Assembly (NCBI GenBank): GCA_963759765.1 | Contig: CAVXAL010000003.1 | Coordinates: 871,804 to 935,803, forward strand | Source: Candidatus Aminicenantes bacterium | GTDB taxonomy: Bacteria; Acidobacteriota; Aminicenantia; UBA2199 | DNA: 64,000 nt | Reading direction: 5' to 3' | Shown here: positions 4,195-58,400 of the stretch, piece by piece | Numbering within the stretch: the first letter of the stretch is position 1 | How the letters are laid out: every line of letters begins with the position of its first letter | The notes under the pieces: model-generated | Databases searched by the model: none | Told to the model about the DNA's origin: nothing | What the model saw: only the letters and a program-made list of their open reading frames with translations | Translations under genes and position numbers: made by a program

Positions 4195-4269
4195 AGGCGC
4201 GTAGCCCAGTTTGGTTAGAGCGCTACCTTGACACGGTAGAGGTCGGCGGTTCGAGCCCGCCCGCGCCTA
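4195..4269 (+). tRNA. tRNA-Val (anticodon GAC)
   Basis: I folded the cloverleaf by hand. The acceptor stem AGGCGCG pairs with CGCGCCT. The anticodon stem is CTACC/GGTAG with loop TTGACAC, giving anticodon GAC at 4230-4232. The T arm is GGCGG-TTCGAGC-CCGCC and the discriminator is A. CCA is not encoded. The D stem has one C:A mismatch. Confidence 0.9.
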
Positions 4270-17939: not shown

Positions 17940-20613
17940 ATGGCCGACTCCCTGCTACTGATCGACGGTATGTTCCTGATTTTCAGCTCCTTTTATGCCA
18001 ACCGCGGCATGCGCACGCTCAAAGGGGAGCCCACCGGGGCCCTCTACGGCTTCGTCACCCGGGTCGAATATCTTCTCAAGGAGCTGAAACCCCACCGCAT
18101 CGCCGTGGCCTTCGACTCCAAGGAAAAAAATTTCCGCCAGCAGCGCTACCCGGAATACAAAGCCAAGCGGCTGCTGCCGCCGGAAGAATTGCTGCAGCAG
18201 ATTCCCTTTGTCAGGGATTACCTCGCCGCCCGCGACATCCCCCTGTTCGAGGTCCCCGGCTTTGAGGCCGACGATCTCATCGCCCAGCTGGCGAAAAAAT
18301 GCGCCGCGGCCGGCAAGCAGGTGTTCATTTTTTCCGCCGACAAGGATCTTTTCCAGCTGGTGCGGGAGAACGTCTCCATCTACCATCCCAAGCTGAAGCA
18401 GAAGCTCGACCGCCAGGAGTTGAAGGAGCTGTTCGGGGTCTACCCCGAGCAGGTGGTCGATTACCTGGCGCTGGTGGGCGACGTATCGGACAATATCCCC
18501 GGCATTCCCGGTGTGGGGGAGAAGACGGCGCTCAAGCTCATCGAGCGTTTCGGCAGCCTGGACAGCCTGCTGAAAAATCTGGCCGATGTGGATCCCAAGC
18601 TGCGCGAGAAAATAGAGAAGAATGCGGATCATTTGGAGCTGGCCCGTGAACTGCTCGACCTCAACCGGGTTCCGGACATCACCGCCGACCTAAAGATCGG
18701 CGAGTTCCGTGACCAAAGCGGCCAAGCGCTGATCGCTCTGTATCAGCGTTTTTCCTTCAACAGCCTGCTTAAGAAGATGGCGGCCGAGATCCCCGCCGCC
18801 CCCTCAACACTGGCCGTGACTTACCACCTGGTGACCGACCGCAAACAGCTGGGCGAGCTGAAGGCAAAGCTCCGCAAACAGCCGCTGGTTGCCCTGGATC
18901 TGGAGACAACGGAGATCGAATTTTTCAAATCCCGGCCGGTGGGCATCTCCTTCGCTTTTGACGACGAGGGTTACTATATCCCTTTCCTCTACCCGCCCGA
19001 ACCCGGCCGGAAGGTCGAGCTGACCCTTGAGGATGCGGTCGGCGCGCTGAAGGAAGTCTTGGAGACCCCACGCATCAGAAAAACCGGCCACAACCTCAAG
19101 TTTGACCTGCTGCATCTGCGCCAGCTGGGCATTGCCGTGGCGGGCATCGCCGACGATACCATGCTCATGTCCTATCTGCTCTTTCCCAACCGCCGTTCCC
19201 ACAGCCTCAAAGAGCTCAGCGCCGAATTCTTCAATTACCAGCAGACCGAGTACGCCGAGCTGACGGGAAAAGGCAAGGCGCAGCGGGCGCTGGCCGACAT
19301 CGAGCTGGAAAAAATCAGCCGCTACTGCATCGATGATTCCTACTTGCCGCTGAAGCTGGCCGAGAAGCTGCGGCCCAACCTGGAGGAGAAAAAGCTCCTC
19401 GCCCTGTACCGCGATGTGGAAATCCCGCTCGTCGGTGTGCTGGAGGCCATGGAGTTTGCCGGCATGAAGTTGGACCGGAATTTCTTAAAATCCGCCGCCC
19501 GCACGTTGAAAAAAAGGATTGCCGCGATCGAAGCCGAGATATACCGTCTGGCCGGTTGCGAGTTGAACTTGAATTCGTCCCAGCAACTGGGCGATCTGCT
19601 CTTCAACAAGCTGAACCTGCCGTTGAGCAAGAAAACCCAGAAGACCAAGGCCTTTTCGACCGACAGCGAAGTCCTCAACGAATTGAAGGGCTTCCCCGTG
19701 GTGGAGAAGATCATCGACTACCGCACCCTGAAGAAATTGCTTTCCACCTACGTGGAAGGACTGCTGGTCGCCATGGATGACAACGACCGCATCCACACCT
19801 CCTTCAACCAGACGGTCACCGCCACCGGGCGCCTCTCCTCATCCAACCCCAACCTGCAAAATATCCCCGTGGGCGAGGTGGGGGGAGTGAACATGCGTTG
19901 CGCCTTCATCGCCGAAAAGGGCCTGGCCCTGCTGGCTGCCGACTACTCCCAGATCGAACTGCGCGTGCTGGCCCATTTTTCCCAGGACGAGCGCCTGCTC
20001 GATGCATTCCGCCACGACCGCGACATCCACCAGCACACCGCCGAGCCTGGTCTTCGGCCCGGAAGCCGGCCGGCCGGAAATGCGGCGCCGCGCCAAGATC
20101 ATCAACTTCTCGATTATCTACGGCAGCGGTCCCTTTTCCCTTTCCAAAGAATTGGGCATCGGCTACGGCGAAGCAAAAACGTTCATCGACACCTACTTTG
20201 CCCAGTACAGCGGTGTGAAACGCTTCATTGACCGCGTCATCGGCGAGGCCGAACAAACAGCCGAGGTGCGCACCATTCTGGGCCGCATCCGGCAGATCCC
20301 GGAGATCCAGAGCTCCAACCGGGCGGTGAAGGAGAACGGCAACCGCATGGCCATCAACTCCATCATCCAGGGCAGCGCCGCCGATATCATCAAGCTGGCC
20401 ATGATCGGCATCCAGCGGCGGTTGGCGGGGCTGCGCAGCCGGCTCCTGATGCAGGTGCACGACGAGCTTGTATTCGAATATCCTCCCGCTGAGGAAAAGC
20501 GGCTGACAGAAATCGTCCGCCAGGAGATGGAACATGCCCTGAAGCTGGACGTGCCAATCAAGGTCAGCCTGCAGAGGGGGGGCAACTGGGGGGAATTGGA
20601 GGAGATGTTCTGA
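17940..20613 (+). CDS. polA: DNA polymerase I (one frame break near ~20040)
   Basis: The 5'-nuclease domain shows LLIDGMFLIFSSFYA and GDVSDNIPGIPGVGEKTALKLI. A 3'-5' exonuclease-like region shows LDLETT. The polymerase domain shows LLAADYSQIELRVLAHFS, RRRAKIINFSIIYG and QVHDELVFE. It spans ORFs 17940..20231 and 20002..20613. Confidence 0.92.
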
Positions 20614-20639
20614 AATGGAAAAGAGGATCAAGCTGGGTA

Positions 20640-21590
20640 TCAGTGCCTGCCTGCTGGGTCAGCCAAAGCGGATTCGTAGAGCCATTGATTGATTTTCTCT
20701 TTGTCTGGCTCGCGGCCGGGCAGAATTTCTTCCCAGGTCTCCTCGTCCTCCATGCACAAATACAGGGGCAGGTCACACGAAATCCGTTTCTCAATCAAGC
20801 GTTTGATGCGGCTGAACAGGTCCAGGCGCAGGGGCTTGAAGTAGCGGTATTTGCCGTCAAAACCGGGAACCAGTTCGCCCCAAAACAGCTGAGATTGCCG
20901 ACGTTTGAAAATGTGCTCCTTCAGTTCCGGCGGAAAGCGCAGCGCCCCCAGGCTCCACCAGGCGATGCGCCCCGGTTGCACGATTTTCCCGATTTCCGTA
21001 ATCAGCGCGGCATAGTGTGTGAGCCAGGCCGGAAAAAGAATCAGCGGGTCAAAATGGATGCCGATTTTGAAGCCTTTTTCCATGATTCGCCGCAGGGCGC
21101 TCAGCCGTTGTTTCAGGCTTGCTGTGCCCGCTTCCTCGCGGCGAATGAGCGCCGCGGGATTGAGCGACCAGGAGACGACGATATTCGGAAGCGGGCGGGG
21201 GTAGGCGAGCAGGTCGGCCACCCGGTCGGACTTGGTTTTGAATTCGAAAACAATCTGCGGATGGGTTGCGAAAAGCTCCAGTAATTTCCTGGCAGAAGGG
21301 GCTTGCCGCTCGCAGGCCAGTGAATCCGAGAGCTCGCCGTTGCCGATGCGCACGGCCCGGTGCCCGGGGGCCAACTGGCGAACCTCCTTTTCCACCGCAG
21401 CAAAGTCGCTAAAAAAACGGGGCCGCTTGCTCGGCAGGTAGCTCTGCAGGATGCAGTAGGAACAGGAAAAGGGGCAGCCGGTATGGAGGTTTAAATTGTA
21501 ATATCCGCAGGAGACGGCGCCCGGCGTGCAGGGGCAAGGCTTTATGAAGGCCCCTTTTTTACTTTTTGATTGAATCATTCTTTTAAACAA
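20640..21590 (-). CDS. spore-photoproduct-lyase-like radical SAM protein
   Basis: The ORF is 316 aa with a CX3CX2C cluster (GCPFSCSYCILQSY). The overall pattern resembles the SplB / DNA-repair photolyase family, recalled from memory. The annotated TTG start may really be ATG 21578. The first ~15 codons are AT-rich. Confidence 0.6.
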   Translation of the reverse strand: MFKRMIQSKSKKGAFIKPCPCTPGAVSCGYYNLNLHTGCPFSCSYCILQSYLPSKRPRFFSDFAAVEKEVRQLAPGHRAVRIGNGELSDSLACERQAPSARKLLELFATHPQIVFEFKTKSDRVADLLAYPRPLPNIVVSWSLNPAALIRREEAGTASLKQRLSALRRIMEKGFKIGIHFDPLILFPAWLTHYAALITEIGKIVQPGRIAWWSLGALRFPPELKEHIFKRRQSQLFWGELVPGFDGKYRYFKPLRLDLFSRIKRLIEKRISCDLPLYLCMEDEETWEEILPGREPDKEKINQWLYESALADPAGRH

Positions 21591-21644
21591 TGTTCATTAT
21601 AAAAAATTTTTTTGGAAAACTAAAAATTGTTAAATTTGACTTGG

Positions 21645-21683
21645 TTGTTTACTCAAATAAAAAATAGTATAATTTATTTGAGT
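21645..21683 (+). promoter_or_regulatory. promoter (TTGTTT-N17-TATAAT) embedded in a perfect 11-bp inverted repeat, a putative operator
   Basis: ACTCAAATAAA (21651-21661) and TTTATTTGAGT (21673-21683) are exact reverse complements separated by 11 nt. TATAAT is at 21668-21673. The methyltransferase ATG is at 21689. Confidence 0.5.
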
Positions 21684-21688
21684 TTGAT

Positions 21689-22549
21689 ATGAAAGATATA
21701 TCAATAAATTTGTTCCTCGGGGACTGTGGAGTTGAGCTAAAAAAAATCGAGGATAATTCTGTTGATCTAATCTTTACTTCACCACCATATGCCGACAGTA
21801 GAAAAAATACCTATGGCGGCATTCATCCCAACAAGTATGTGGATTGGTTTCTCCCGATTTCATATGAATTGTTAAGAGTTTTAAAGCCCACTGGAACATT
21901 TGTTTTGAATATAAAAGAAAAAGTTGTAAATAGTGAGCGCCATACGTACGTTATGGAATTGATTTTGGGGATGAAAAAACAAGGTTGGCTTTGGACGGAG
22001 GAATTCATTTGGCATAAAAAGAACTGCTATCCAGGAAAGTGGCCAAATAGGTTCAGGGACGCATGGGAGCGATTGCTCCAATTCAACAAAACAAAAAAAT
22101 TCAATATGTTCCAGGATCGGGTTATGGTAGCTGTCGGTGAATGGTCGAAAGACAGGTTGAGAAATTTGAGTGAAATTGACAGGATCAGAGATAATTCGAA
22201 GGTAGGAAGCGGTTTTGGAAAAAAAATTTCTAATTGGATTAATAGAACTTATGTGTATCCAACTAATGTATTGCATCTCGCGACCGAATGCAGTAATAAA
22301 AATCACAGTGCGGCATTTCCGGCATCACTTCCGGAGTGGTTTATAAAATTATTTACAAATGAATTTGATACCGTTTTGGATCCTTTTATGGGTTCCGGTA
22401 CAACCATATTAGTTGCTCGTAACTTGAATAGAAATGCCATCGGAATTGAAATAGTTCCTGAGTATTTTGAAATTATAAAAAATAAAATTAAAGAAGATCG
22501 TTCTCTTTTTAATCAAGGTTTATTTTATGAACAAGCTAAAAATTTCTGA
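21689..22549 (+). CDS. beta-class N4/N6 DNA methyltransferase (SPPY motif, probably N4-cytosine)
   Basis: The ORF is 286 aa. Motif IV (DLIFTSPPY) is near the N-terminus and motif I (DPFMGSGTT) near the C-terminus, which is the beta permutation. HSAAFPASLPEWFIKLFT is also typical of the PF01555-type family. Confidence 0.85.
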   Translation: MKDISINLFLGDCGVELKKIEDNSVDLIFTSPPYADSRKNTYGGIHPNKYVDWFLPISYELLRVLKPTGTFVLNIKEKVVNSERHTYVMELILGMKKQGWLWTEEFIWHKKNCYPGKWPNRFRDAWERLLQFNKTKKFNMFQDRVMVAVGEWSKDRLRNLSEIDRIRDNSKVGSGFGKKISNWINRTYVYPTNVLHLATECSNKNHSAAFPASLPEWFIKLFTNEFDTVLDPFMGSGTTILVARNLNRNAIGIEIVPEYFEIIKNKIKEDRSLFNQGLFYEQAKNF

Positions 22550-23255
22550 TGTAGTTAAATATGTTGAAGAAAACATCGGGACATTCCATGAGCGAAGACT
22601 TAGAAGTCTTAAAGAACTTGAATTAAAAAAAATTCTCAAGAGGAAAAATCCATATCTTTTCAGGGCCAAAGATATTTTGACTTCGCATGAACTTGTCAAG
22701 GTAATCTTAGATGCCCATCTTTCTTCCCAAGAAGAAACTATTTTCGGAGAGTTTTTGGAAGGGCTCGCAATTTTTATTTGCAGTAAAGTTCATAACGGAC
22801 AAAAATCCGCTGCTGAAGGAATTGATTTAGAATTTGTGAAAGATGGGATAAAGTATATCGTTACGATAAAATCAGTGCCGAATTGGGGGAACAATAGTCA
22901 AATCAAAAAAATGCTAGATAATTTTCGGAAAGCCAAGAAGGTGTTGGGCACTAGTGCTGCTAGAGTAAACATCGTCGCAGTAAATGGATGCTGTTACGGT
23001 AAGGACGATAATCCTGAAAAGGAAGAGTATCAAAAATTATGTGGACAACGTTTCTGGGCATTCATTTCTGGAAATGAAAATTTATTTACTGAGATTATAG
23101 AGCCATTAGGACATCAGGCAAGAAAACGGAACGATGAATTTATTGAAAAGTATGCCCAAATTATCAATAAATTTACTTATGCCTTTGGAAAAGAATTTAG
23201 TCGTAATGGAAGAATTAACTGGAAAAAGTTGGTTAAATTTAATTCTTCAAAATAA
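22527..23255 (+). CDS. putative type II restriction endonuclease (cognate of the upstream methyltransferase)
   Basis: The 242-aa ORF overlaps the methyltransferase stop by 23 nt. The segment RKNPYLFRAK...GIDLEFVKDGIKYIVTIKSVPNWGN looks like a PD-(D/E)xK-type core. From memory it resembles TdeIII/Eco47II-like REase families, which I could not verify. Confidence 0.55.
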   Translation: MNKLKISDVVKYVEENIGTFHERRLRSLKELELKKILKRKNPYLFRAKDILTSHELVKVILDAHLSSQEETIFGEFLEGLAIFICSKVHNGQKSAAEGIDLEFVKDGIKYIVTIKSVPNWGNNSQIKKMLDNFRKAKKVLGTSAARVNIVAVNGCCYGKDDNPEKEEYQKLCGQRFWAFISGNENLFTEIIEPLGHQARKRNDEFIEKYAQIINKFTYAFGKEFSRNGRINWKKLVKFNSSK

Positions 23256-23277
23256 AAAAGTAGTTTTCTGTTGTTAA

Positions 23278-24195
23278 TTAAAAATTTCTACATGCATCCA
23301 AGTCAATTTCAAGGGGTTTACTATAAGGTTCAAATGGAGCTGGTTTTTCGGTGTTTGAAATACATTTTGATGGTATTTTTAGTTTCAATTCTTCTATAAG
23401 ACTTCGAATTTCAGGATCTGATTCAGATTTAACCTTCACTTTTAAACTGGGATAAATTATCATCGCAAACCAAGGATCTTGATTAATTTTTTCTTTATTT
23501 GTTTTTAATGGAATTAAAAACTCTGGTTTTTGTTGAGTATTCATATACATTTCTTTGAATTCTTTATCATCCATGTAATAAGATGGCATTCTGAATTTTT
23601 CCAATATTTCTTTTTTTCCTATTTGTTCTAATCTTTCTTTTATTTCATTTGAATAAATTATTCGCCATTCTGATTCATCAAAATATTTATATTCCCATGT
23701 TCCATCTGGGATTGATTTTTCAGCCATCTGTTTTAGAAAACATAAAAAAAATTCATTGAATTTTGTATTTTCATTTGCAATTGACAAGAATGGTGGGAAA
23801 AACCAATTCTTTCTCGATGGATGATAATAAACCATTGGACATCCAAGACGATCAAACAAAAAAAACCGTTTAAATCCGATACCCAATCTTCCAAATCTTG
23901 ATGCATGTAATCGAACTTCAGATAATTTTAATTCCGTAAAACAAGTTCTTGCAGTCAATGGGCGCTCAATTTTTTCTCCATTAATTAAAAGATATCTTTC
24001 ACTTTCGTCCCTTGTCATCCATAGTCCATATTTTAATATACTTTTTAATCGCTTCAGATAAAGCTCAGTAACTTCATTATTCGTACTTGATGAATGTTTT
24101 TCGAACCAATTTTTATCATATTTGTCATCAATATCTCTTTTTCCTGTCCAATGAATAATAAAATCTGAGTGATAAGGTTTATATTGTTTATACAC
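23278..24195 (-). CDS. AbiGi-like (abortive-infection family) protein, solitary
   Basis: The ORF is 305 aa with a GTG start and AAGGAG 7 nt upstream. FIIHWTGK, LKSILKYGLWMT, CFTELKLSEVRLHASRFGRLGIGFKRFF and YFDESEWRIIY match my memory of the AbiGi (PF10899) pattern. No AbiGii-like partner is present. Confidence 0.5.
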   Translation of the reverse strand: MYKQYKPYHSDFIIHWTGKRDIDDKYDKNWFEKHSSSTNNEVTELYLKRLKSILKYGLWMTRDESERYLLINGEKIERPLTARTCFTELKLSEVRLHASRFGRLGIGFKRFFLFDRLGCPMVYYHPSRKNWFFPPFLSIANENTKFNEFFLCFLKQMAEKSIPDGTWEYKYFDESEWRIIYSNEIKERLEQIGKKEILEKFRMPSYYMDDKEFKEMYMNTQQKPEFLIPLKTNKEKINQDPWFAMIIYPSLKVKVKSESDPEIRSLIEELKLKIPSKCISNTEKPAPFEPYSKPLEIDLDACRNF

Positions 24196-24271
24196 AAGGG
24201 ATCTCCTTTTTCGAGGTTAACTTACATCTTTACTTTTAGATCAATTATTTGTTCTAGTCAATATTAATGAT

Positions 24272-25633
24272 TTATCCAATAAAAAACATACGTATATCCA
24301 TGACGTTGGCGCTGGTGGGGCCGGTGATCCAGAGCTGATTGAGGGCTTTGAAGAAACGGTGGGAGTCGTTCTGGCGCAGGTGGCGGTCGATATCCAGGTC
24401 CAGGCGCTGAGCCTTGGCTCGGGTCTGCTGGTCGATCCAGGCGCCGGCTGCGTCGGTCGGACCGTCGATGCCGTCGCTGCCCAGGCTCAGGGCGAAAAAA
24501 GGATAGGGCAGCTCTTCCAGCTCTTTAAGGAGTTGCAGCATGAACTCCTGGTTGCGGCCGCCCTGGCCCCGGCCGCTCACCGTGACCGTGAGTTCGCCTC
24601 CGGCCAGAAGCAGCAGGGGCGGCTGCCAGGGTTGACCGGTTTGAGAGATCTTTTTGATCAGGGCCGCATAGACGCGGGCCGCTTGGCGCGCCTCGCCGCT
24701 GTCCCGGGAAGTTAGAATGTCGGTGCGCAGCCCCTGGCGCCGGGCCGCCGCGCACAGCGAATTCAGCGCCACCCGGTTGTCGCCGAGAATGGCGTGGCCA
24801 TGGCCGGCAAAACGCGCATCGCCGGGCTTGGGCGTTTCCGGTATTTCCCCTGCGCGCGCTCGCGAAAAGCAATTTCGTAGGTGCGGTCCCAGACGGGCCA
24901 GAAGATCGTGGCGCTCGAGTATGTCCAGCGCCTCCGGCCAGGTGCTCGGATCGGGGATGGTCGGCCCCGAGCCGATGTCCTCGGGCGGTGAGTCGATGAT
25001 GTCGGAAACGATCAGGGTCAGCACCCGGGCCGGATGAAGCCGCGCGGCCAGCCGGCCGCCCTTGATGGCTGACATGTGCTTGCGCAGGCAGTTGAGTTCG
25101 CGGATGGGGGCACCTGCGGCCTGCAGCCGGCGGGTGATGGCGATCTTGTCGCGCAGGCGGAAAGGCGGCAACGGTTCGGTCAGCAGCGCCGACGCACCGC
25201 CCGTCACCAGGAAGAGGACCAGATCGTTGGCGCCGATATGATTGTTGGCGTAGCGGCGGAAGGCCCATGCCGCCTGCAGGTTGCGGCGGTCGGGCAGCGG
25301 ATGGGCACCGGAGACAACCTCGATGTTCGAGTCCGACTGTGCCGGGCTGTCAGCCGGAGCCACGATCACCCCGCCGTGAATCCTGTTTTTTAAAACGTGC
25401 GCCGCGCCCCGCCAGAAGGGGAGGGCGCCTTTTCCCGCAGCCAGCAGGTGGATCTTTTCAACTCCCCTAAGGGAAAAAAGTTCGCCGCAAACGAGAAGTT
25501 CCCGAGGCCGGACGGTCAGCTTCTCCCTGAGCAGGAGTCCGGGATCAACCGCCTGCAGGGCGGCGCGGACGAGCTGGCGGCTGAGGGCTTTAATGACCCT
25601 GGATTTTGGCCAGGGTGATAGCGGACTGCCCAT
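24272..25633 (-). CDS. glycerate 2-kinase / hydroxypyruvate reductase family (DUF4147 + MOFRL)
   Basis: The ORF is 453 aa. Motifs include LLAAGKGA, VSGAHPLPD, LVTGGASALL, ELNCLRKHMSAIKGGRLA, LIVSDIIDSPPEDIGSGPT and the MOFRL-like C-terminus LAGGELTV...GGRNQEF...LGSDGIDGPTDAAGA. Confidence 0.8.
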   Translation of the reverse strand: MGSPLSPWPKSRVIKALSRQLVRAALQAVDPGLLLREKLTVRPRELLVCGELFSLRGVEKIHLLAAGKGALPFWRGAAHVLKNRIHGGVIVAPADSPAQSDSNIEVVSGAHPLPDRRNLQAAWAFRRYANNHIGANDLVLFLVTGGASALLTEPLPPFRLRDKIAITRRLQAAGAPIRELNCLRKHMSAIKGGRLAARLHPARVLTLIVSDIIDSPPEDIGSGPTIPDPSTWPEALDILERHDLLARLGPHLRNCFSRARAGEIPETPKPGDARFAGHGHAILGDNRVALNSLCAAARRQGLRTDILTSRDSGEARQAARVYAALIKKISQTGQPWQPPLLLLAGGELTVTVSGRGQGGRNQEFMLQLLKELEELPYPFFALSLGSDGIDGPTDAAGAWIDQQTRAKAQRLDLDIDRHLRQNDSHRFFKALNQLWITGPTSANVMDIRMFFIG

Positions 25634-26147
25634 TGTATTTGCCCTGGAGGTCCTTGTAGGAGAAAACCGGAAAATCGTCGCTCTCCAGGAAGACCACCTG
25701 GGCGATGCCCTCGCCCGGATAAAGCGTGACGGGTTGCGGGCCGCTGTTGGCGATGGAGATGGTCAGGTAGCCGCTCCATTCCGGCTCCAGCGGCGTGACG
25801 TTGACGATGACGCCGCAGCGGGCGTAGGTCGATTTGCCGAAAGCGATCCCCAGAATTTTTTTGGGCATGCGGAAGTATTCCAGGGAGCGACCCAGGATGT
25901 AGTGGCCGGAGGCCAGCCGGATGGGCTCTTCGCTCAGGGTATCGAAATCCTCCTCGCGCACGTGGTGGGGGTCGAGCGGCCGGTCGGAAGCCCGCGGCCG
26001 CTTGTGGGCGCGGTCCAGGCGTATGTCGTAGCCGTAGGGGCCAAGCCCGTAGGAGATCACCCCCTGGCGCACGGAATGGGCGATGAACGGCGCGATCATC
26101 TGGCTGTGCTCGCATTGCTCCTGGATCCAGCGCGAGGATTTGAGCAT
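25590..26147 (-). CDS. dcd: dCTP deaminase
   Basis: The ORF is 185 aa. Motifs include SYGLGPYGYDIRL, GKSTYARCGVIVNVTPLEPEWSGYLTISIANSGPQPVTLYPGEGIAQVVF and KYNGQ. The size is that of a housekeeping enzyme. Confidence 0.9.
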   Translation of the reverse strand: MLKSSRWIQEQCEHSQMIAPFIAHSVRQGVISYGLGPYGYDIRLDRAHKRPRASDRPLDPHHVREEDFDTLSEEPIRLASGHYILGRSLEYFRMPKKILGIAFGKSTYARCGVIVNVTPLEPEWSGYLTISIANSGPQPVTLYPGEGIAQVVFLESDDFPVFSYKDLQGKYNGQSAITLAKIQGH

Positions 26148-27031
26148 CAGATGACGCTGTATTTGGCGATCTTCAGGCTGAACAAGCAGGCGAGCTTGGT
26201 CAGGTACTTGATGTCGTTGACCGTGTCCTTGGAAAATTTGGTCAGGTGTTTGGCGAAATTGCTTTCCTCATGCAAGCGCAGCTTGTTCTCGAATTCCTGG
26301 GTGAACTCTTTCAGCTCGATCATCAGGTTCTGGATGGTGAGCAGGTGGTCGACCATGCTCAGCAGTTCCACGGTGGGAATGCTTTTCGGGTCCGCTTTGG
26401 GGAAGGTCTTCAACCGTTCCAGCGCTTCACCGGTCAGCTCCTTGCAGAGGTAGTCGATCTCCTTCAGGTCCGCTTTCTCGTATTCATCGTAGAAGCGGAG
26501 TTTGTGCCGGGCCCGCTCCTGGATCTTGGTGTTCTGGTCGAGGACGGATAGGAAATAGTCGTTCAATCCGAAATTCTTCTTCTCGAACTTCTTCAGGTCG
26601 ACGAAGATGCGCCCCAGGTAGATCTTGTCGCTGTAGGATTTGACCAATTCGTCCTGGTAATGGGAATAGAACTTAACGGCGAATTTCTGCCCCTCGTGGA
26701 AAACCAGCCGGCCGATGATCACGTCTTGGTCGTGGGAAATATAATAGGCGTTCTCCTCAATGACCGAGCTGTAAAGGAAGAGGGTGTTGATGATGAATTC
26801 CTTCAGGCTATCCAGAAAGGCCTCGTTCGAGTCGATGAAGCTCTTCAGCTCTGGGAACCATTCACCGCGGATCAGGGTGTAGAAGGGTGTGAGCAGGTAT
26901 TTTTCCCCCTGGTAGATCAGTTCCAGGTGAAGGTTGGTACGGATCCTCTCGAACAGGCTGTTGTGTTTCAACCGCGGGTAATTGGTCAGCGGTTCGCCGT
27001 TAAAGGACTTCAAGGCATTGAGTGTATACAC
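26147..27031 (-). CDS. hypothetical protein (~294 aa), translationally coupled to dcd
   Basis: The ORF is intact. The likely start is GTG 27031, with GGAGG 5 nt upstream, rather than the ORF-track start at 27094. Its stop TGA shares one nucleotide with the dcd ATG (TGATG). The product is K/E/L/F-rich with no motif I recognise, and GC is lower than in the neighbours. Confidence 0.6.
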   Translation of the reverse strand: MYTLNALKSFNGEPLTNYPRLKHNSLFERIRTNLHLELIYQGEKYLLTPFYTLIRGEWFPELKSFIDSNEAFLDSLKEFIINTLFLYSSVIEENAYYISHDQDVIIGRLVFHEGQKFAVKFYSHYQDELVKSYSDKIYLGRIFVDLKKFEKKNFGLNDYFLSVLDQNTKIQERARHKLRFYDEYEKADLKEIDYLCKELTGEALERLKTFPKADPKSIPTVELLSMVDHLLTIQNLMIELKEFTQEFENKLRLHEESNFAKHLTKFSKDTVNDIKYLTKLACLFSLKIAKYSVI

Positions 27032-27047
27032 GGCTGCCTCCAATCTA

Positions 27048-27076
27048 ATTATAGGGAAGGGCCGGCAAAAAGTAAA
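27048..27076 (-). promoter_or_regulatory. candidate promoter (TTTACT-N17-TATAAT) for the unknown-gene/dcd/glycerate-kinase operon
   Basis: On the minus strand, TTTACT is at 27076-27071 and TATAAT at 27053-27048. An SD and GTG 27031 follow. Confidence 0.4.
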
Positions 27077-27114
27077 TAGCCGGTGCATTGACATCGGAAC
27101 GGTGATAACCTAAG

Positions 27115-54178: not shown

Positions 54179-55522
54179 TTATCGTTGTATGGATCGAATG
54201 CGCGCCGCCCGGGCCTCCAGTGATTCGGCGTCCTTGATACGGCCGGTTTTTCGAAAGAGTTTTGCCATGTTCTCAAGGCTCGCGGCCACAAAGGGATGAT
54301 CCGGGCCGAGGACCTTCTCATAGATCGCCAGCGAGCGTTTGTAGAGCGGCTCGGCCTGCGCGTACTTGCCTTGGGCGCGATATAGTTCTGCGAGATTGTT
54401 TAGGCTGGTGGCCACTAAGGGATGATCCGGGCCGAGGGTTCTCTCATATATTGCCAGCGAATGCTTGAAGAGTGGTTCAGCCCATATGTACTGGCCTTGG
54501 TCGCATTGCAGTTCCGCGAGATAGTTCAGGCTCGCGGCCACATCAGGATGATCCGGACCGAGGGATTTCTCCCTAATTGCCAGCGAACGCTTGAAGAGCG
54601 GCTCAGCCTGTTCGTATTTGCCTTGGACGTGATACAGTTCTGCGAGATTGTTAAGGGTCGTGGCCACATCGGGATGCTCAGGGCCGAAGGCCTTTTCATT
54701 AATCGCCAGAGAGCGTTTGTAGAGCGGCTCGGCCTGTTCATACTTGCCTTGGACGCGATACAGCTCTGCAAGATTGTTCAAGCTCATCGCGACATTGGGA
54801 TGATCAAGGCCGAAAGCCTTTTCATTGATCGCCAGCGATCGCTTGAAGAGCGGCTCAGCACATGCATACTGGCCTTGGGCTTGATATAGTGATGCGAGGT
54901 TGTTCAGGATCTGGGCCACATCAGGATGATCCGGACCGAGGGCCTTTTCCAAGATCGTCAACGAACGCTTGTAGAGCGGCTCGGCCTGCGCGTACTTACC
55001 TTGGGAATCGTACAGTTCCCCGAGGTTGCCCAAGCTCGCGGCCACATTGGGATGATCCGGGCCGCGGGCCTTCTCCAAGATCGCCAGAGAGCGCTTATAG
55101 AGTGGCTCGGCCTGTTCGTACTTGCCTTGAGCGCGATTCAGTAACCCGAGATTGTTCAGACTCTGGGCCACATCAGGATGATCCGGCCCGAGGGCTTTCT
55201 CCCTAATCGCCAGCGAGCGCTTGTAGAGCGGCTCGGCCTGCGCGTATTGACCTTGGGCACGATACAGTTCCGCGAGGCTGTTCAGGCTCGTGGCTACATT
55301 GTGATGATCCGGGCCAAATGCCTTCTCTGCCACCTCGAGTGCCTTCTTCGCAACGACCACTGCACGGTCATATTTACCAGCGCGAAAAAGATCCGTAACT
55401 TCCTTATTCAACTTTTCCCATTCAATGCCTTGTGAGCACACAGGGGCTAAAAATAGCAACAGCACAGCAGCCCTCCCAATTGCCCTGATTAAATTCATCA
55501 TGTTCCCGTCTCCTATATGCAC
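54179..55522 (-). CDS. secreted TPR protein with ~9 tandem 42-residue (TPR_12 / kinesin-light-chain-type) repeats
   Basis: The ORF is 447 aa with a signal-like N-terminus (MMNLIRAIGRAAVLLLFLAPVCS). The repeated unit is SLNNLAELYRAQGKYAQAEPLYKRSLAIxEKALGPDHPDVA. Confidence 0.85.
   Translation of the reverse strand: MHIGDGNMMNLIRAIGRAAVLLLFLAPVCSQGIEWEKLNKEVTDLFRAGKYDRAVVVAKKALEVAEKAFGPDHHNVATSLNSLAELYRAQGQYAQAEPLYKRSLAIREKALGPDHPDVAQSLNNLGLLNRAQGKYEQAEPLYKRSLAILEKARGPDHPNVAASLGNLGELYDSQGKYAQAEPLYKRSLTILEKALGPDHPDVAQILNNLASLYQAQGQYACAEPLFKRSLAINEKAFGLDHPNVAMSLNNLAELYRVQGKYEQAEPLYKRSLAINEKAFGPEHPDVATTLNNLAELYHVQGKYEQAEPLFKRSLAIREKSLGPDHPDVAASLNYLAELQCDQGQYIWAEPLFKHSLAIYERTLGPDHPLVATSLNNLAELYRAQGKYAQAEPLYKRSLAIYEKVLGPDHPFVAASLENMAKLFRKTGRIKDAESLEARAARIRSIQR
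54230..55400 (-). repeat. imperfect 126-bp tandem coding repeats (TPR units)
   Basis: The 42-aa periodicity is visible in the protein (AEPL[YF]K[RH]SLAI occurs 8 times) and in the DNA. Boundaries are approximate. Confidence 0.7.
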
Positions 55523-55777: not shown

Positions 55778-55800
55778 TTAAGTAGGGGTGGAGATGAAAA

Positions 55801-56325
55801 ATGAGTATTAAGGACTTTTTTTCGTTTAAAAAGAAGCTGACAATTGACACCACCGCCCCAAAAGAACTCCAAGGATTATCATTATTCTCGCAGGAAAACA
55901 TGGGAAAAGCATTTGAATTGACCACGCAAAAACTTCAAGAACTTCTAAATTTAAAGGATGTGCCTGGTCGCAAAGAAATTGTTGATCGCTTCCATATAAC
56001 AAATCAGGAATTCAATGTACTTTATGCTAGTTATTACGGGTCGCTCTTTGCCGATCATGGCACAGAGGGTGGGTGGAATGAAGATTGTGATGATTTCGCT
56101 CGGGAAATCGGCGCCCTCTCCGACGCAGAAATCGAAAATGCAAAAAAAAATCTTCATTTAGCTATATTGAATCGGATAAAGTTGCGTTTTATAAGTTCGG
56201 ATAAATATGCAAAAGCTGCGCGCTTTCCTCAGCGCCTCGAACGGGGTGCTAAGCCCTTTCAGGCACTTATGAGTCAAATCCCACTTTTTCGGAGCGAGGA
56301 TGCGGTTCCAGTCGATGCTCGGTGA
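55801..56325 (+). CDS. hypothetical protein (174 aa)
   Basis: The ORF is intact, sits in a lower-GC patch, and has no recognisable motif. It overlaps the next ORF by 26 nt. A T5 run at 56285-56289 could alternatively fuse the two ORFs. Confidence 0.5.
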   Translation: MSIKDFFSFKKKLTIDTTAPKELQGLSLFSQENMGKAFELTTQKLQELLNLKDVPGRKEIVDRFHITNQEFNVLYASYYGSLFADHGTEGGWNEDCDDFAREIGALSDAEIENAKKNLHLAILNRIKLRFISSDKYAKAARFPQRLERGAKPFQALMSQIPLFRSEDAVPVDAR

Positions 56326-56809
56326 ACTGGCTTACACTGGTCTCGAGATTTACGATGATCCGGGTCTGGGCATTAGTCTCCGCTACGAGCGCGGCATTAC
56401 CAAGGCCACCGTGTATCTTTACGACCTCGGTTTGGAACACATCCCCGACGACATTCGCTCCGAGACAGTGACCCAGTTTTTCCAGCAGGCATGCAGCGAC
56501 GTCTTTGTCTCTGCAGATTGTGGCAGTTATCTCGACCTTAAGACGCGCGCCTCGCAGTATCTTCACCTCCCAGCCGATTCGCTCGTCCCGATGTATCTAT
56601 GGGCGGCATTTTATTACCGTCAGGCACCTGGCCCCGGTGTTGACTACTTGGGTTTTCGATTCTCCCACGTTTTGCTTCGAACGGACGGTGGCTACATTAA
56701 TAAGGTTCGCTACACATATCCCGCGCACCCCACGCACACAGCCACTGATGCCGAACGGGGCATGATGCACTTTTTACTCGACTGGTATAACGCAATCCCT
56801 AAGGACTAA
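56300..56809 (+). CDS. hypothetical protein (169 aa)
   Basis: The ORF is intact, with GGAG 5 nt upstream of the ATG. It has no recognisable motif. It may be the C-terminal part of a single ~336-aa protein. Confidence 0.5.
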   Translation: MRFQSMLGELAYTGLEIYDDPGLGISLRYERGITKATVYLYDLGLEHIPDDIRSETVTQFFQQACSDVFVSADCGSYLDLKTRASQYLHLPADSLVPMYLWAAFYYRQAPGPGVDYLGFRFSHVLLRTDGGYINKVRYTYPAHPTHTATDAERGMMHFLLDWYNAIPKD

Positions 56810-56906
56810 CATGTGCGTGCAGCTTATTAACTTATCGCTCGCTGCTGATGCAAGGCGCTTCAGCCGATGTCTAATGCGCCTTCTCCGTCCGTTTGTGCGA
56901 TATTCT

Positions 56907-58274
56907 CTACTTACAATGTTCTTTTATTAAATCGTATGCCTGAGTAGATCCAAGTTCACCAGCTTTTCTTAAATCAAGACATCCGCCGTCTTTGTCTCCA
57001 AGTGCAATCTTTAAAAGCCCTCTTCCAATATATGCCTTTGCATCTTTCGGGTTTAACTCAATGACCTTTGTAAAATCATCTATAGCACCACGATAGTCTT
57101 CAAGTTTATCTTTTGCAATCCCTCTATAAAAATATGCACTCGCCTCTTTCGGATTTAGCTCGGTGGCCTTCGTTAAATCAGCTATGGCTCCGTGATAATC
57201 TTTAAGGTCGTCTTTTGCAATCCCTCTATAAAAATATGCACTCGCCTCTTTCGGATTTAGCTCGGTGGCCTTCGTTAAATCAGCTATGGCTCCGTGATAA
57301 TCTTTAAGGTCGTCTTTTGCAATCCCTCTATTATAATAGGCATCTGTATATTTCGGATCTAACTCGATAGACTTTGTAAAATCATCAATGGCTCCTTTAT
57401 AGTCTGCAAGTTTAGCTTTTAAAACTCCTCTTTGATGATAAACCTCTGCATTTTTAGGCTCTAACTCGATGGCTTTTGTGCAATCCTGAATACCTCCGGT
57501 ATAGTCTTTAAGTTTACCCTTAGAAAATCCTCTATTATTAAATGCCATTGCATATTTCGGATTTAGCTCGGTTGCCTTCGTGAAATCGGCTATGGCTCCG
57601 AGATAGTCTTCAATTTTATACTTTGCATTTCCTCTGTTAAAATATGTCATTGCATTTTCCGGATTTAACTCGATGGCCTTCGTATAATCCTGGATGGCTC
57701 CATGATTGTCTTCAAGTTTATACTTTGCAAATCCTCTGAGAATAAATCCTTTTTCATTTTTCGGATCTAAATCAATGGCCTTTGTAAAATCCTCTATGGC
57801 TCTGAGATAGTCTTCAAGTTCACCTCTCGCATGCCCTCTATTATAATATGCATCTATATATTTTGGATCTAATTCTATGGCATTCGTGTAATCCTCTATG
57901 GCTCCGCGATAGTTTTGAATACTAACTTTTGCATCTCCTCTTTTAAAATATACTATGAAGCTACGTACTGCACATTCCGGATCTTCTAACTCGATAGCCT
58001 TCGTGTAATCCTCTATGGCTCCGAGATAATTCTTAAGTTCTTCTTTTGCAATCCCTCTATAAAAATATGCATCTGCAAATTTCGGATCTAACTTGATGGC
58101 TTTTGTAAAATCCTTTATGGCTCCATGATGGTCTTCAAGTTTATACTTTGCAAACCCTCTATCACAATATGCCTTTGCATCTTTCGGCTTAGCGGCTTTC
58201 ATATAGCTCGAAAAAAACAATGACAAAATAACTAACAAGATAACATAACGATTTTTTTCTTTTTTTGATGGCAT
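56907..58274 (-). CDS. TPR-repeat protein (classic 34-residue repeats), low GC, signal/anchor at the N-terminus
   Basis: The ORF is 455 aa. The N-terminus reads MPSKKEKNRYVILLVILSLFFSS. About 12 repeats follow the form AxAYxxRGxAKxxLxDYxGAIxDxTKAIELxPK. Confidence 0.85.
   Translation of the reverse strand: MPSKKEKNRYVILLVILSLFFSSYMKAAKPKDAKAYCDRGFAKYKLEDHHGAIKDFTKAIKLDPKFADAYFYRGIAKEELKNYLGAIEDYTKAIELEDPECAVRSFIVYFKRGDAKVSIQNYRGAIEDYTNAIELDPKYIDAYYNRGHARGELEDYLRAIEDFTKAIDLDPKNEKGFILRGFAKYKLEDNHGAIQDYTKAIELNPENAMTYFNRGNAKYKIEDYLGAIADFTKATELNPKYAMAFNNRGFSKGKLKDYTGGIQDCTKAIELEPKNAEVYHQRGVLKAKLADYKGAIDDFTKSIELDPKYTDAYYNRGIAKDDLKDYHGAIADLTKATELNPKEASAYFYRGIAKDDLKDYHGAIADLTKATELNPKEASAYFYRGIAKDKLEDYRGAIDDFTKVIELNPKDAKAYIGRGLLKIALGDKDGGCLDLRKAGELGSTQAYDLIKEHCK
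57109..57330. repeat. perfect 102-bp tandem duplication (2.2 copies) inside the TPR gene
   Basis: 57109-57210 is identical to 57211-57312, and the first 18 nt recur at 57313-57330. Each copy encodes exactly one 34-aa TPR unit (ELNPKEASAYFYRGIAKDDLKDYHGAIADLTKAT, twice). Confidence 0.9.
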
Positions 58275-58400
58275 TTGTCCCCCTCGAAAAGATATTACGA
58301 AGAATTTTATTAAATTTCAACTTCTCTTGCAACTGGTCCAAAAGAATTAAGTTTTTACCTCTTCATATAGTCGATCCTATCCGAGCTTGGCGCAGGAAAG

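Follow-up and report, generated by a model that had tools for sequence, protein, structure and literature searches.

A low-GC islet of an Aminicenantes contig holds a PmeII-family restriction-modification cassette beside a stand-alone AbiGi-like gene

The restriction endonuclease EcoO109I cuts RGGNCCY and is paired with a 5-methylcytosine (m5C) methyltransferase and a C protein. In P. mendocina, the DNA is modified at GGWCC, and this motif matches the characterised endonuclease of the strain, PmeII (bioRxiv 10.1101/2021.02.10.430591). Lactococcal AbiG, which comprises AbiGi and AbiGii and is carried by plasmid pCI750, belongs to the abortive infection (Abi) systems; AbiGi (PF10899) has been listed among the ADP-ribosyltransferase families, in the R-S-E clade, and in the related Lsan_2474 family the motifs are R-SxS-ExE, with CxS as a variant form of motif II (bioRxiv 10.1101/2024.07.30.605764). 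Relatives of both kinds of gene lie next to each other in the stretch analysed here (the window), 64,000 nt of contig CAVXAL010000003.1 of a Candidatus Aminicenantes bacterium. A methyltransferase gene and an overlapping endonuclease gene are followed, on the opposite strand, by an AbiGi-like gene, and the three together fill an islet of low guanine-plus-cytosine content (GC), taken as positions 21591–24271 (2681 nt).

We consider it likely that the islet consists of two independent defence-type modules, a restriction-modification (R-M) cassette and an AbiGi-like gene, which lie side by side by accident and do not form one system. By tblastn, none of the 86 loci collected as contexts of AbiGi-like genes encoded this methyltransferase or endonuclease. 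The six metagenomic loci that carry the R-M pair (L050–L055) all lacked an AbiGi-like gene, and no such gene was present in the annotated stretch of an Aeromonas plasmid R-M locus. GC at third codon positions (GC3) was 0.345 in the methyltransferase gene, 0.30 in the endonuclease gene, and 0.18 in the AbiGi-like gene, and this gap between the modules (0.18 vs. 0.30–0.35) hints at different histories. The original prediction, made from the sequence, had allowed for either two stacked defences (R-M plus Abi) or one co-evolved three-gene module of a kind that could not be matched to a described system. The former fits the evidence, and the latter fails on the lack of co-occurrence in the 86 AbiGi-like and six metagenomic R-M loci. 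One point weighs against separate histories, namely that all three genes may have been acquired in a single event. The features of the islet and its flanks were as follows.

20640 to 21578, minus strand: splB-like radical-SAM (spore-photoproduct-lyase-like) gene, left flank, native, 312 aa; PF20903 at 3.6e-16; GC3 0.70
21579 to 21688, no strand: left junction and divergent promoter region, 110 nt, GC 0.17; read from the sequence
21689 to 22549, plus strand: beta-class methyltransferase gene, 286 aa; PF01555, SPPY and FxGxG motifs
22527 to 23255, plus strand: type II restriction endonuclease gene, PmeII family and EcoO109I fold, 242 aa; PF14511
22881 to 22885, plus strand: run of five G (G5) within the endonuclease gene, where a second assembly (L136) differs; blastn of L136 against the window
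23278 to 24195, minus strand: AbiGi-like stand-alone gene, 305 aa; PADLOC AbiGi, PF10899 at family level
24196 to 24271, no strand: right junction, AT-rich spacer, 76 nt, GC 0.28; read from the sequence, contains the ribosome-binding site of the AbiGi-like gene and presumably its promoter
24272 to 25633, minus strand: glycerate-kinase-like gene (DUF4147 and MOFRL), right flank, native, 453 aa; PF13660 at 2.6e-65, PF05161 at 1.2e-35; GC3 0.77

In 300-nt sliding windows, GC fell from 0.59 at 21200–21499 to 0.25–0.39 over 21500–24349 and rose to 0.65–0.68 from 24350; the islet had a GC of 0.32 compared to 0.59 in the remainder of the window, and the flanking polA, splB-like, glycerate-kinase-like, and dcd genes had a GC3 of 0.70–0.84. 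The drop that had been judged by eye, from about 62% to about 30%–38% GC, is thus a sharp break in both measures. Exactly three open reading frames (ORFs) lay inside it, of 286, 242, and 305 aa, all intact and the first two overlapping by 23 nt, as had been described. The spacers measured 110, 22, and 76 nt, too short to hold a further gene. Both flanking genes are read on the minus strand and both are intact: the ATG of the splB-like gene, at 21578, faces the islet, and its N-terminus aligned to homologues starting at residue 1, while the stop codon of the glycerate-kinase-like gene faces the islet from the other side, and its homologues aligned through to the final residues (451–453). Since both flanking genes are complete, the foreign DNA is wholly intergenic.

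Searches agreed with the earlier statement that the islet has no integrase, transposase, tRNA, or flanking direct repeats. There was no integrase, transposase, or recombinase among its three ORFs, no tRNA in it (the sole tRNA of the window lies at 4195, about 17 kb away), and no flanking direct or inverted repeat beyond chance AT-rich matches. A scan of the islet found no Rfam family, and terminator-like sites showed no excess over chance, with three found in the region and 2.4 expected. One of these features, a hairpin followed by a T-run (GGCTTTATGAAGGCC CCTTTTTT), was located at 21538–21562 on the plus strand; it coincides with the left boundary of the GC drop and lies within the 5′ part of the splB-like reading frame, which is encoded by the opposite strand. 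The remaining genes of the window were housekeeping genes, including those for IF-2, NusA, IF-3, PheST, DXS, RNase Y, PolA, exonuclease VII, and Ddl, in a survey that covered the 25 commonest among the 67 Pfam families matched by the other genes of the window. Because of the sharp break in GC and GC3, the intact flanking genes, and the junctions reproduced in an independent assembly, we conclude that the islet DNA is horizontally acquired and that its composition has not drifted towards that of the host.

The methyltransferase carries FTSPPY at residues 29–34 and FMGSGT(T) at residues 233–238, and motif IV (SPPY) precedes motif I (FxGxG), which is the beta-class order. It matched PF01555 at 6.7e-47 and the PADLOC profile MTase_II at 9.2e-46. 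Its best solved relative was the N4-cytosine enzyme M.PvuII, matched over the full length at 8.5e-28, and the N6-adenine enzymes M.MboIIA and M.RsrI gave full-length matches of 5.5e-12 or weaker. Because the match to M.PvuII is far stronger than those to M.MboIIA and M.RsrI, the methyltransferase probably makes N4-methylcytosine (m4C), in line with the earlier proposal of an SPPY beta-class enzyme of likely m4C type. Six nucleotides upstream of its start codon, an 11-bp perfect inverted repeat (ACTCAAATAAA...TTTATTTGAGT, stems at 21651–21661 and 21673–21683) brackets a TATAAT. Folded as single-stranded DNA, the hairpin at 21651–21683 had an energy of −7.5 kcal/mol (z = −3.95). The repeat was not conserved, the upstream regions of related cassettes failing to align; in a cassette without a C protein, it may serve as an operator, for which it is a candidate by its sequence and position.

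The endonuclease matched positions 2–198 of the 198 positions of PF14511 (RE_EcoO109I) with its residues 8–202 (1.8e-86, 289 bits vs. a cut-off of 22.5). More than 8000 homologues, 65%–77% identical, were found in many phyla, some of them named "PmeII family type II restriction endonuclease" by NCBI, and every one of the 72 residues found to be invariant across 30 homologues is present in the protein of the window. An AlphaFold2 model of moderate quality (predicted local distance difference test, pLDDT, 77.5) matched the EcoO109I structures 1wtd and 1wte in Foldseek with E values of 1.3e-8 to 2.1e-8, a probability of 1.00, and template modelling (TM) scores of 0.68–0.72; the next match, at E 0.015, was six orders weaker. 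At the level of sequence, neither phmmer nor a profile of 30 sequences found a link to EcoO109I. The endonuclease is therefore assigned to the PmeII family, with the EcoO109I fold. The 242-aa protein had been put forward as a putative endonuclease; it is indeed one, and not an unknown one, being a member of a named family that is both very large and highly conserved.

A methyltransferase gene followed by an endonuclease gene recurred in all six of the metagenomic loci, with 74%–80% identity for the methyltransferase and 70%–77% for the endonuclease, and four of them (L051–L054) had the same 286-aa methyltransferase and the same 23-nt overlap as the window. The pair was also present on 5.6-kb mobilizable Aeromonas plasmids (L141), where the methyltransferase was 63% and the endonuclease 49% identical. 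Related small plasmids of Klebsiella, Salmonella, and others carried the endonuclease, annotated "PmeII family," and the endonuclease family was found on 10 IMG/VR viral contigs. The first two genes of the islet are a known mobile Type II R-M cassette; the earlier description of them as an R-M pair is upheld by the PF01555 and PF14511 matches and by the pairing that recurs elsewhere. In locus L050 (3107–5774), the pair stands directly downstream of a radical-SAM gene, in the other orientation than in the window. A shared association with such a gene was considered and rejected as chance, as tblastn found no similarity between the two radical-SAM proteins.

By analogy with PmeII and EcoO109I, the recognition site is most likely GGWCC or a relative of the GGNCC type. 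Among 512 classes of 5-mers, GGWCC ranked second for depletion in the host part of the window, with an observed-to-expected ratio (O/E) of 0.67, and RGGNCCY showed no depletion in the window (O/E 1.02). Two observations weigh against GGWCC with an m4C modification. In unrelated high-GC loci, the pooled O/E of GGWCC was 0.86 (range 0.57–1.12), which places the depletion only a little beyond baseline, and because this baseline is itself below 1, we counted site avoidance as weak evidence. Moreover, the GGWCC modification assigned to PmeII in P. mendocina is m5C and not m4C (bioRxiv 10.1101/2021.02.10.430591).

The AbiGi-like gene starts with GTG, 7 nt after an AAGGAG, and converges with the endonuclease gene at a distance of 22 nt. 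Its product matched the PADLOC AbiGi profile at 2.1e-8 over residues 50–218. The match to Pfam AbiGi (PF10899) was 0.0042 at 17.6 bits, below the gathering score of 22.4; PF10899 was matched by 36 of the 37 aligned family members, with a best value of 2.9e-7. The 305-aa protein can thus be called AbiGi-like, as had been suggested, on the PADLOC match and on the PF10899 matches of its family. There were 540 homologues, the best 59% identical, and the family alignment had 39 invariant columns. A search with the family profile against 1.84 billion representatives returned 971 clusters at E ≤ 1e-3 and 116 at E ≤ 1e-30, the 971 being clusters at 50% identity that cover the wider AbiGi superfamily. 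Members of the family core were about 290 aa in full length, and remoter proteins of about 245 aa matched the first ~185 positions only; the 10 of these that were scanned all matched Pfam AbiGi above threshold. The protein of the window is therefore read as an AbiGi domain, an N-terminal domain of ~185 aa, followed by ~110 C-terminal residues that are specific to the subfamily and terminate in CRNF. By its sequence, it belongs to a distant branch of the AbiGi superfamily with proteins of about 290 aa.

No AbiGii partner was found in the islet or in the 86 related loci, and without one the AbiGi-like gene falls outside the definition of a canonical AbiG system. Nor was there another conserved neighbour. 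An all-against-all clustering of 354 neighbouring ORFs gave no shared family beyond duplicate contigs, a Pfam scan of the genes one and two places away on either side (150 non-redundant neighbours) gave no recurrent family, and pairwise comparison of the ORFs downstream of AbiGi-like genes gave no conserved partner. The neighbours (L056–L135) included the DRT reverse transcriptases UG14, Drt4, and Drt6, Shedu SduA, PDC-S01/S06, mad8, and genes of Type I, II, and III R-M systems; TIR and Schlafen-type proteins and the conjugation proteins TraG/TrwB were also among them. In 18 of 64 loci, the GC of the AbiGi-like gene was more than 10 points below that of its flanks. The data suggest that in many lineages the family travels as cargo of defence islands, a picture that draws on the frequency of known defence genes among the neighbours. 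No relative was found in the plasmid, phage, and IMG/VR collections (2.9 million viral contigs), and the family was found only in uncultured environmental lineages, such as Omnitrophica and Patescibacteria.

Three groups of conserved residues in the AbiGi-like protein resemble the motifs of ADP-ribosyltransferases. H15-W16-T17 lies on a strand at 12–17, with W16 and T17 invariant and H15 conserved in at least 90% of the family, and R49 is invariant. C85-F86-T87 lies on a strand at 82–88 that is followed by a helix, with C85 and F86 invariant and T87 conserved in at least 90%. E174-S175-E176 is invariant and stands at the start of a strand at 176–181. In our own reading of these motifs, H-x-T with the arginine would be motif I, C-x-T motif II, and E-x-E motif III, which fits the order of ADP-ribosyltransferases and the strands on which their core motifs are expected. 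Several results weigh against it. The AlphaFold2 model of the protein (pLDDT 87.7) gave no fold match in Foldseek against PDB and BFVD, with no PDB match at E < 1, and no ADP-ribosyltransferase was among its top 50 PDB matches; profile and single-sequence searches of PDB sequences with the protein likewise found nothing. Foldseek may miss a core as divergent as this one, and the negative result lowers the claim. A review also describes lactococcal AbiGi and AbiGii as having no structural match and a mechanism that is not known (PMC13064643). As there was no fold match and no PDB profile match, the enzymatic assignment draws on the order of the motifs and on profile comparisons that have been published for the AbiGi family at large.

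The junctions were seen in a second assembly. The splB-like protein was 100% identical over its 312 aa to a protein (P0241) on a 1.34-Mb contig, and a 5.5-kb contig from Logan run ERR10755944 (L136), corresponding to window positions 20313–25809, spanned the glycerate-kinase-like gene, the islet, and the splB-like gene at 99.96% identity. Over these 5.5 kb, blastn showed two differences only, one indel and one single-nucleotide polymorphism (SNP). The SNP, at about 24202, lies in the ribosome-binding site of the AbiGi-like gene and replaces G by A (AAGGAGG vs. AAGGAGA). The indel leaves four G in L136 where the window has five at 22881–22885, and the endonuclease is frameshifted there into products of 129 and 114 aa. 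The gene caller had cut the AbiGi-like ORF of L136 into products of 57 and 149 aa, with the DNA intact, and this splitting may explain why no identical 305-aa protein was present in the protein collection. In the window itself, polA (17940–20613) is split into two overlapping ORFs of 763 and 203 aa; the frame changes near 20040–20060, at ...ACCGCCGAGCCTG..., immediately beyond the conserved DIHxxTA motif, and the split is probably an assembly indel error and not a real pseudogene. With glycerate kinase as the query, a scan of genome contigs found relatives of at most 47% identity, none of which had splB, dcd, or polA nearby. The nearest relatives of the splB-like gene, on three Aminicenantes contigs (L137–L139), were 60%–61% identical, and the gene upstream of them encoded a peptidase S58 and not a glycerate kinase. 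No empty site was found because the nearest relatives are only about 60% identical and not syntenic.

With high confidence, and by analogy with described systems, the methyltransferase and endonuclease would work as a standard Type IIP R-M system, a classical mobile cassette in which the methyltransferase would mark and protect the sites of the host and the endonuclease, presumably a homodimer like EcoO109I, would cleave incoming DNA that lacks the modification, at a short palindromic site. The overlapping reading frames would couple the expression of the two. The AbiGi-like protein, as a single-gene member of its branch, would both sense and act in one polypeptide; if it is defensive, it must do so alone because neither an AbiGii partner nor a conserved neighbour accompanies it. 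Its most likely action would be to modify, on infection, a nucleic-acid or protein target by ADP-ribosyl transfer and so to stop phage or host macromolecular synthesis, with abortive infection or growth arrest as the outcome, and the C-terminal ~110 aa might be a regulatory or sensor part. We hold this mechanism, both the ADP-ribosyl transfer and the C-terminal regulator, with low to moderate confidence. The fuller proposal, that the ~290-aa family is a self-sufficient single-gene antiphage effector with a divergent ADP-ribosyltransferase-like core, a private C-terminal sensor, no AbiGii, and a fold absent from the PDB, is tentative; it is possible, and we would not call it probable. The "antitoxin" label that Pfam gives to AbiGi fits poorly with a stand-alone effector and counts against it.

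The evidence also bears on other explanations of the locus. An assembly chimera, in which low-GC DNA of another organism was mis-joined to a high-GC contig, is suggested by the extreme contrast in composition and by the source, a metagenome-assembled genome. It is argued against by the independent L136 contig, which reproduces both junctions; these, moreover, coincide with the gap between two host genes that are complete and read in the same direction, and low-GC R-M and AbiGi-like genes sit in higher-GC surroundings elsewhere too, so that we regard a chimera as extremely improbable. That the three genes evolved together as a single system, in which the AbiGi-like protein cooperates with the R-M pair or is controlled by it, would suit their tight packing (22 nt between the convergent stop codons and nothing else in the islet) and the AT-richness that all three share. 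It is nevertheless very hard to reconcile with the distributions of the two parts, which had no locus in common among the 86 and the six, nor in the annotated plasmid locus. The endonuclease is present in plasmids and viral contigs and the AbiGi-like family is absent from the plasmid, phage, and viral-contig collections; GC3 differs between the two parts, and in the convergent orientation the AbiGi-like and R-M genes cannot share a transcript. Two independent modules remain the likely reading of the islet.

Each module could still differ from the role proposed for it. R-M systems often lose their endonuclease, and the 1-nt deletion in the G5 run that splits the endonuclease gene of L136 could mark a cassette in decay, with the endonuclease inactive or being lost, an orphan methyltransferase left behind, and an islet that no longer restricts. 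Through that frameshift, part of the population may carry an inactive restriction arm, which is a point against a fully working cassette. The endonuclease of the window is intact, however, with 72 of the 72 family-invariant residues, and a G5 run is short for phase variation. As the window itself has at least one probable indel error, in polA, the difference between L136 and the window may be a sequencing artefact, and decay of the cassette appears quite unlikely. The AbiGi-like gene might not be a defence gene at all and might instead be a selfish toxin or addiction gene, or have another cellular role, hitch-hiking in variable regions and leaving the R-M pair as the sole defence module. No partner, mechanism, or phenotype is known for it, and Pfam names AbiGi an antitoxin; some of its neighbours are conjugation genes (TraG/TrwB), and the low GC relative to the flanks in 18 of 64 loci points to a gene that is generally mobile. 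On the other side, it is homologous to the AbiGi of an experimentally shown phage-resistance system (PMC13064643), its neighbours are often known defence genes, and searches of the 2.9 million viral contigs and of the phage and plasmid collections found no relative. We judge a non-defensive role unlikely, with somewhat more weight than decay of the cassette.

Two further features of the window lie outside the islet. A second low-GC patch at 55800–58300, with 1-kb GC down to 0.38 at 57–58 kb, contains a TPR-repeat protein gene at 56907–58274 on the minus strand (GC3 0.30), adjoined by another TPR protein gene at 54179–55522 on the minus strand; its ORFs at 55801–56325 and 56300–56809, both on the plus strand, had no Pfam or PADLOC match. 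This patch is probably another foreign insertion, unrelated to the islet. Directly downstream of dcd, a 315-aa ORF at 26147–27094 on the minus strand had a host-like GC3 of 0.79, a very low GC at second codon positions (GC2) of 0.27, and no Pfam or PADLOC match; its product is a lineage-specific protein.

Taken together, a promiscuous R-M cassette, which also travels on enterobacterial and Aeromonas plasmids, was recently acquired by an uncultured bacterium that is deep-branching and Aminicenantes-like, and the islet is a clean example both of very small defence islets and of the far travel of such cassettes. The islet had been singled out as the best candidate for the accessory or novel system in the window; one new system it is not, being mainly a routine R-M cassette of a common named family. 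The R-M pair is ordinary and brings nothing new; the useful outcome is the delineation of a conserved branch of AbiGi that has no partner, keeps ADP-ribosyltransferase-like motifs, often stands among defence genes, and yields a confident model without a solved relative. A single-gene relative of AbiGi would offer a simpler handle than AbiG for testing whether AbiGi domains are enzymes.

Compared to known systems, the cassette resembles those of the PmeII/EcoO109I fold in combining a PF14511 endonuclease with a PF01555 methyltransferase, the methyltransferase first and the frames overlapping. It differs from EcoO109I in an endonuclease that is only ~17% identical and in having no C protein, and from PmeII of P. 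mendocina, with its m5C modification, in a partner that is a probable m4C enzyme of the beta class. The N-terminal ~185 residues of the AbiGi-like protein are homologous to AbiGi of lactococcal AbiG, which likewise has no structural match in the PDB (PMC13064643), whereas the gene of the window has no adjacent AbiGii and encodes a protein ~50 residues longer than AbiGi, with a conserved C-terminal region. With the ADP-ribosyltransferase toxins (DarT, DUF2971, and Lsan_2474 families), it shares candidate motifs I–III and the published superfamily placement of AbiGi; it differs in that no antitoxin such as the DarG macrodomain accompanies it. The islet, at just 2.7 kb, differs from integrase- and tRNA-associated genomic islands in having no integrase, tRNA target, or direct repeats, and it resembles defence islands and integrative islands in that two defence-type modules are stacked in DNA of foreign composition within a housekeeping region.

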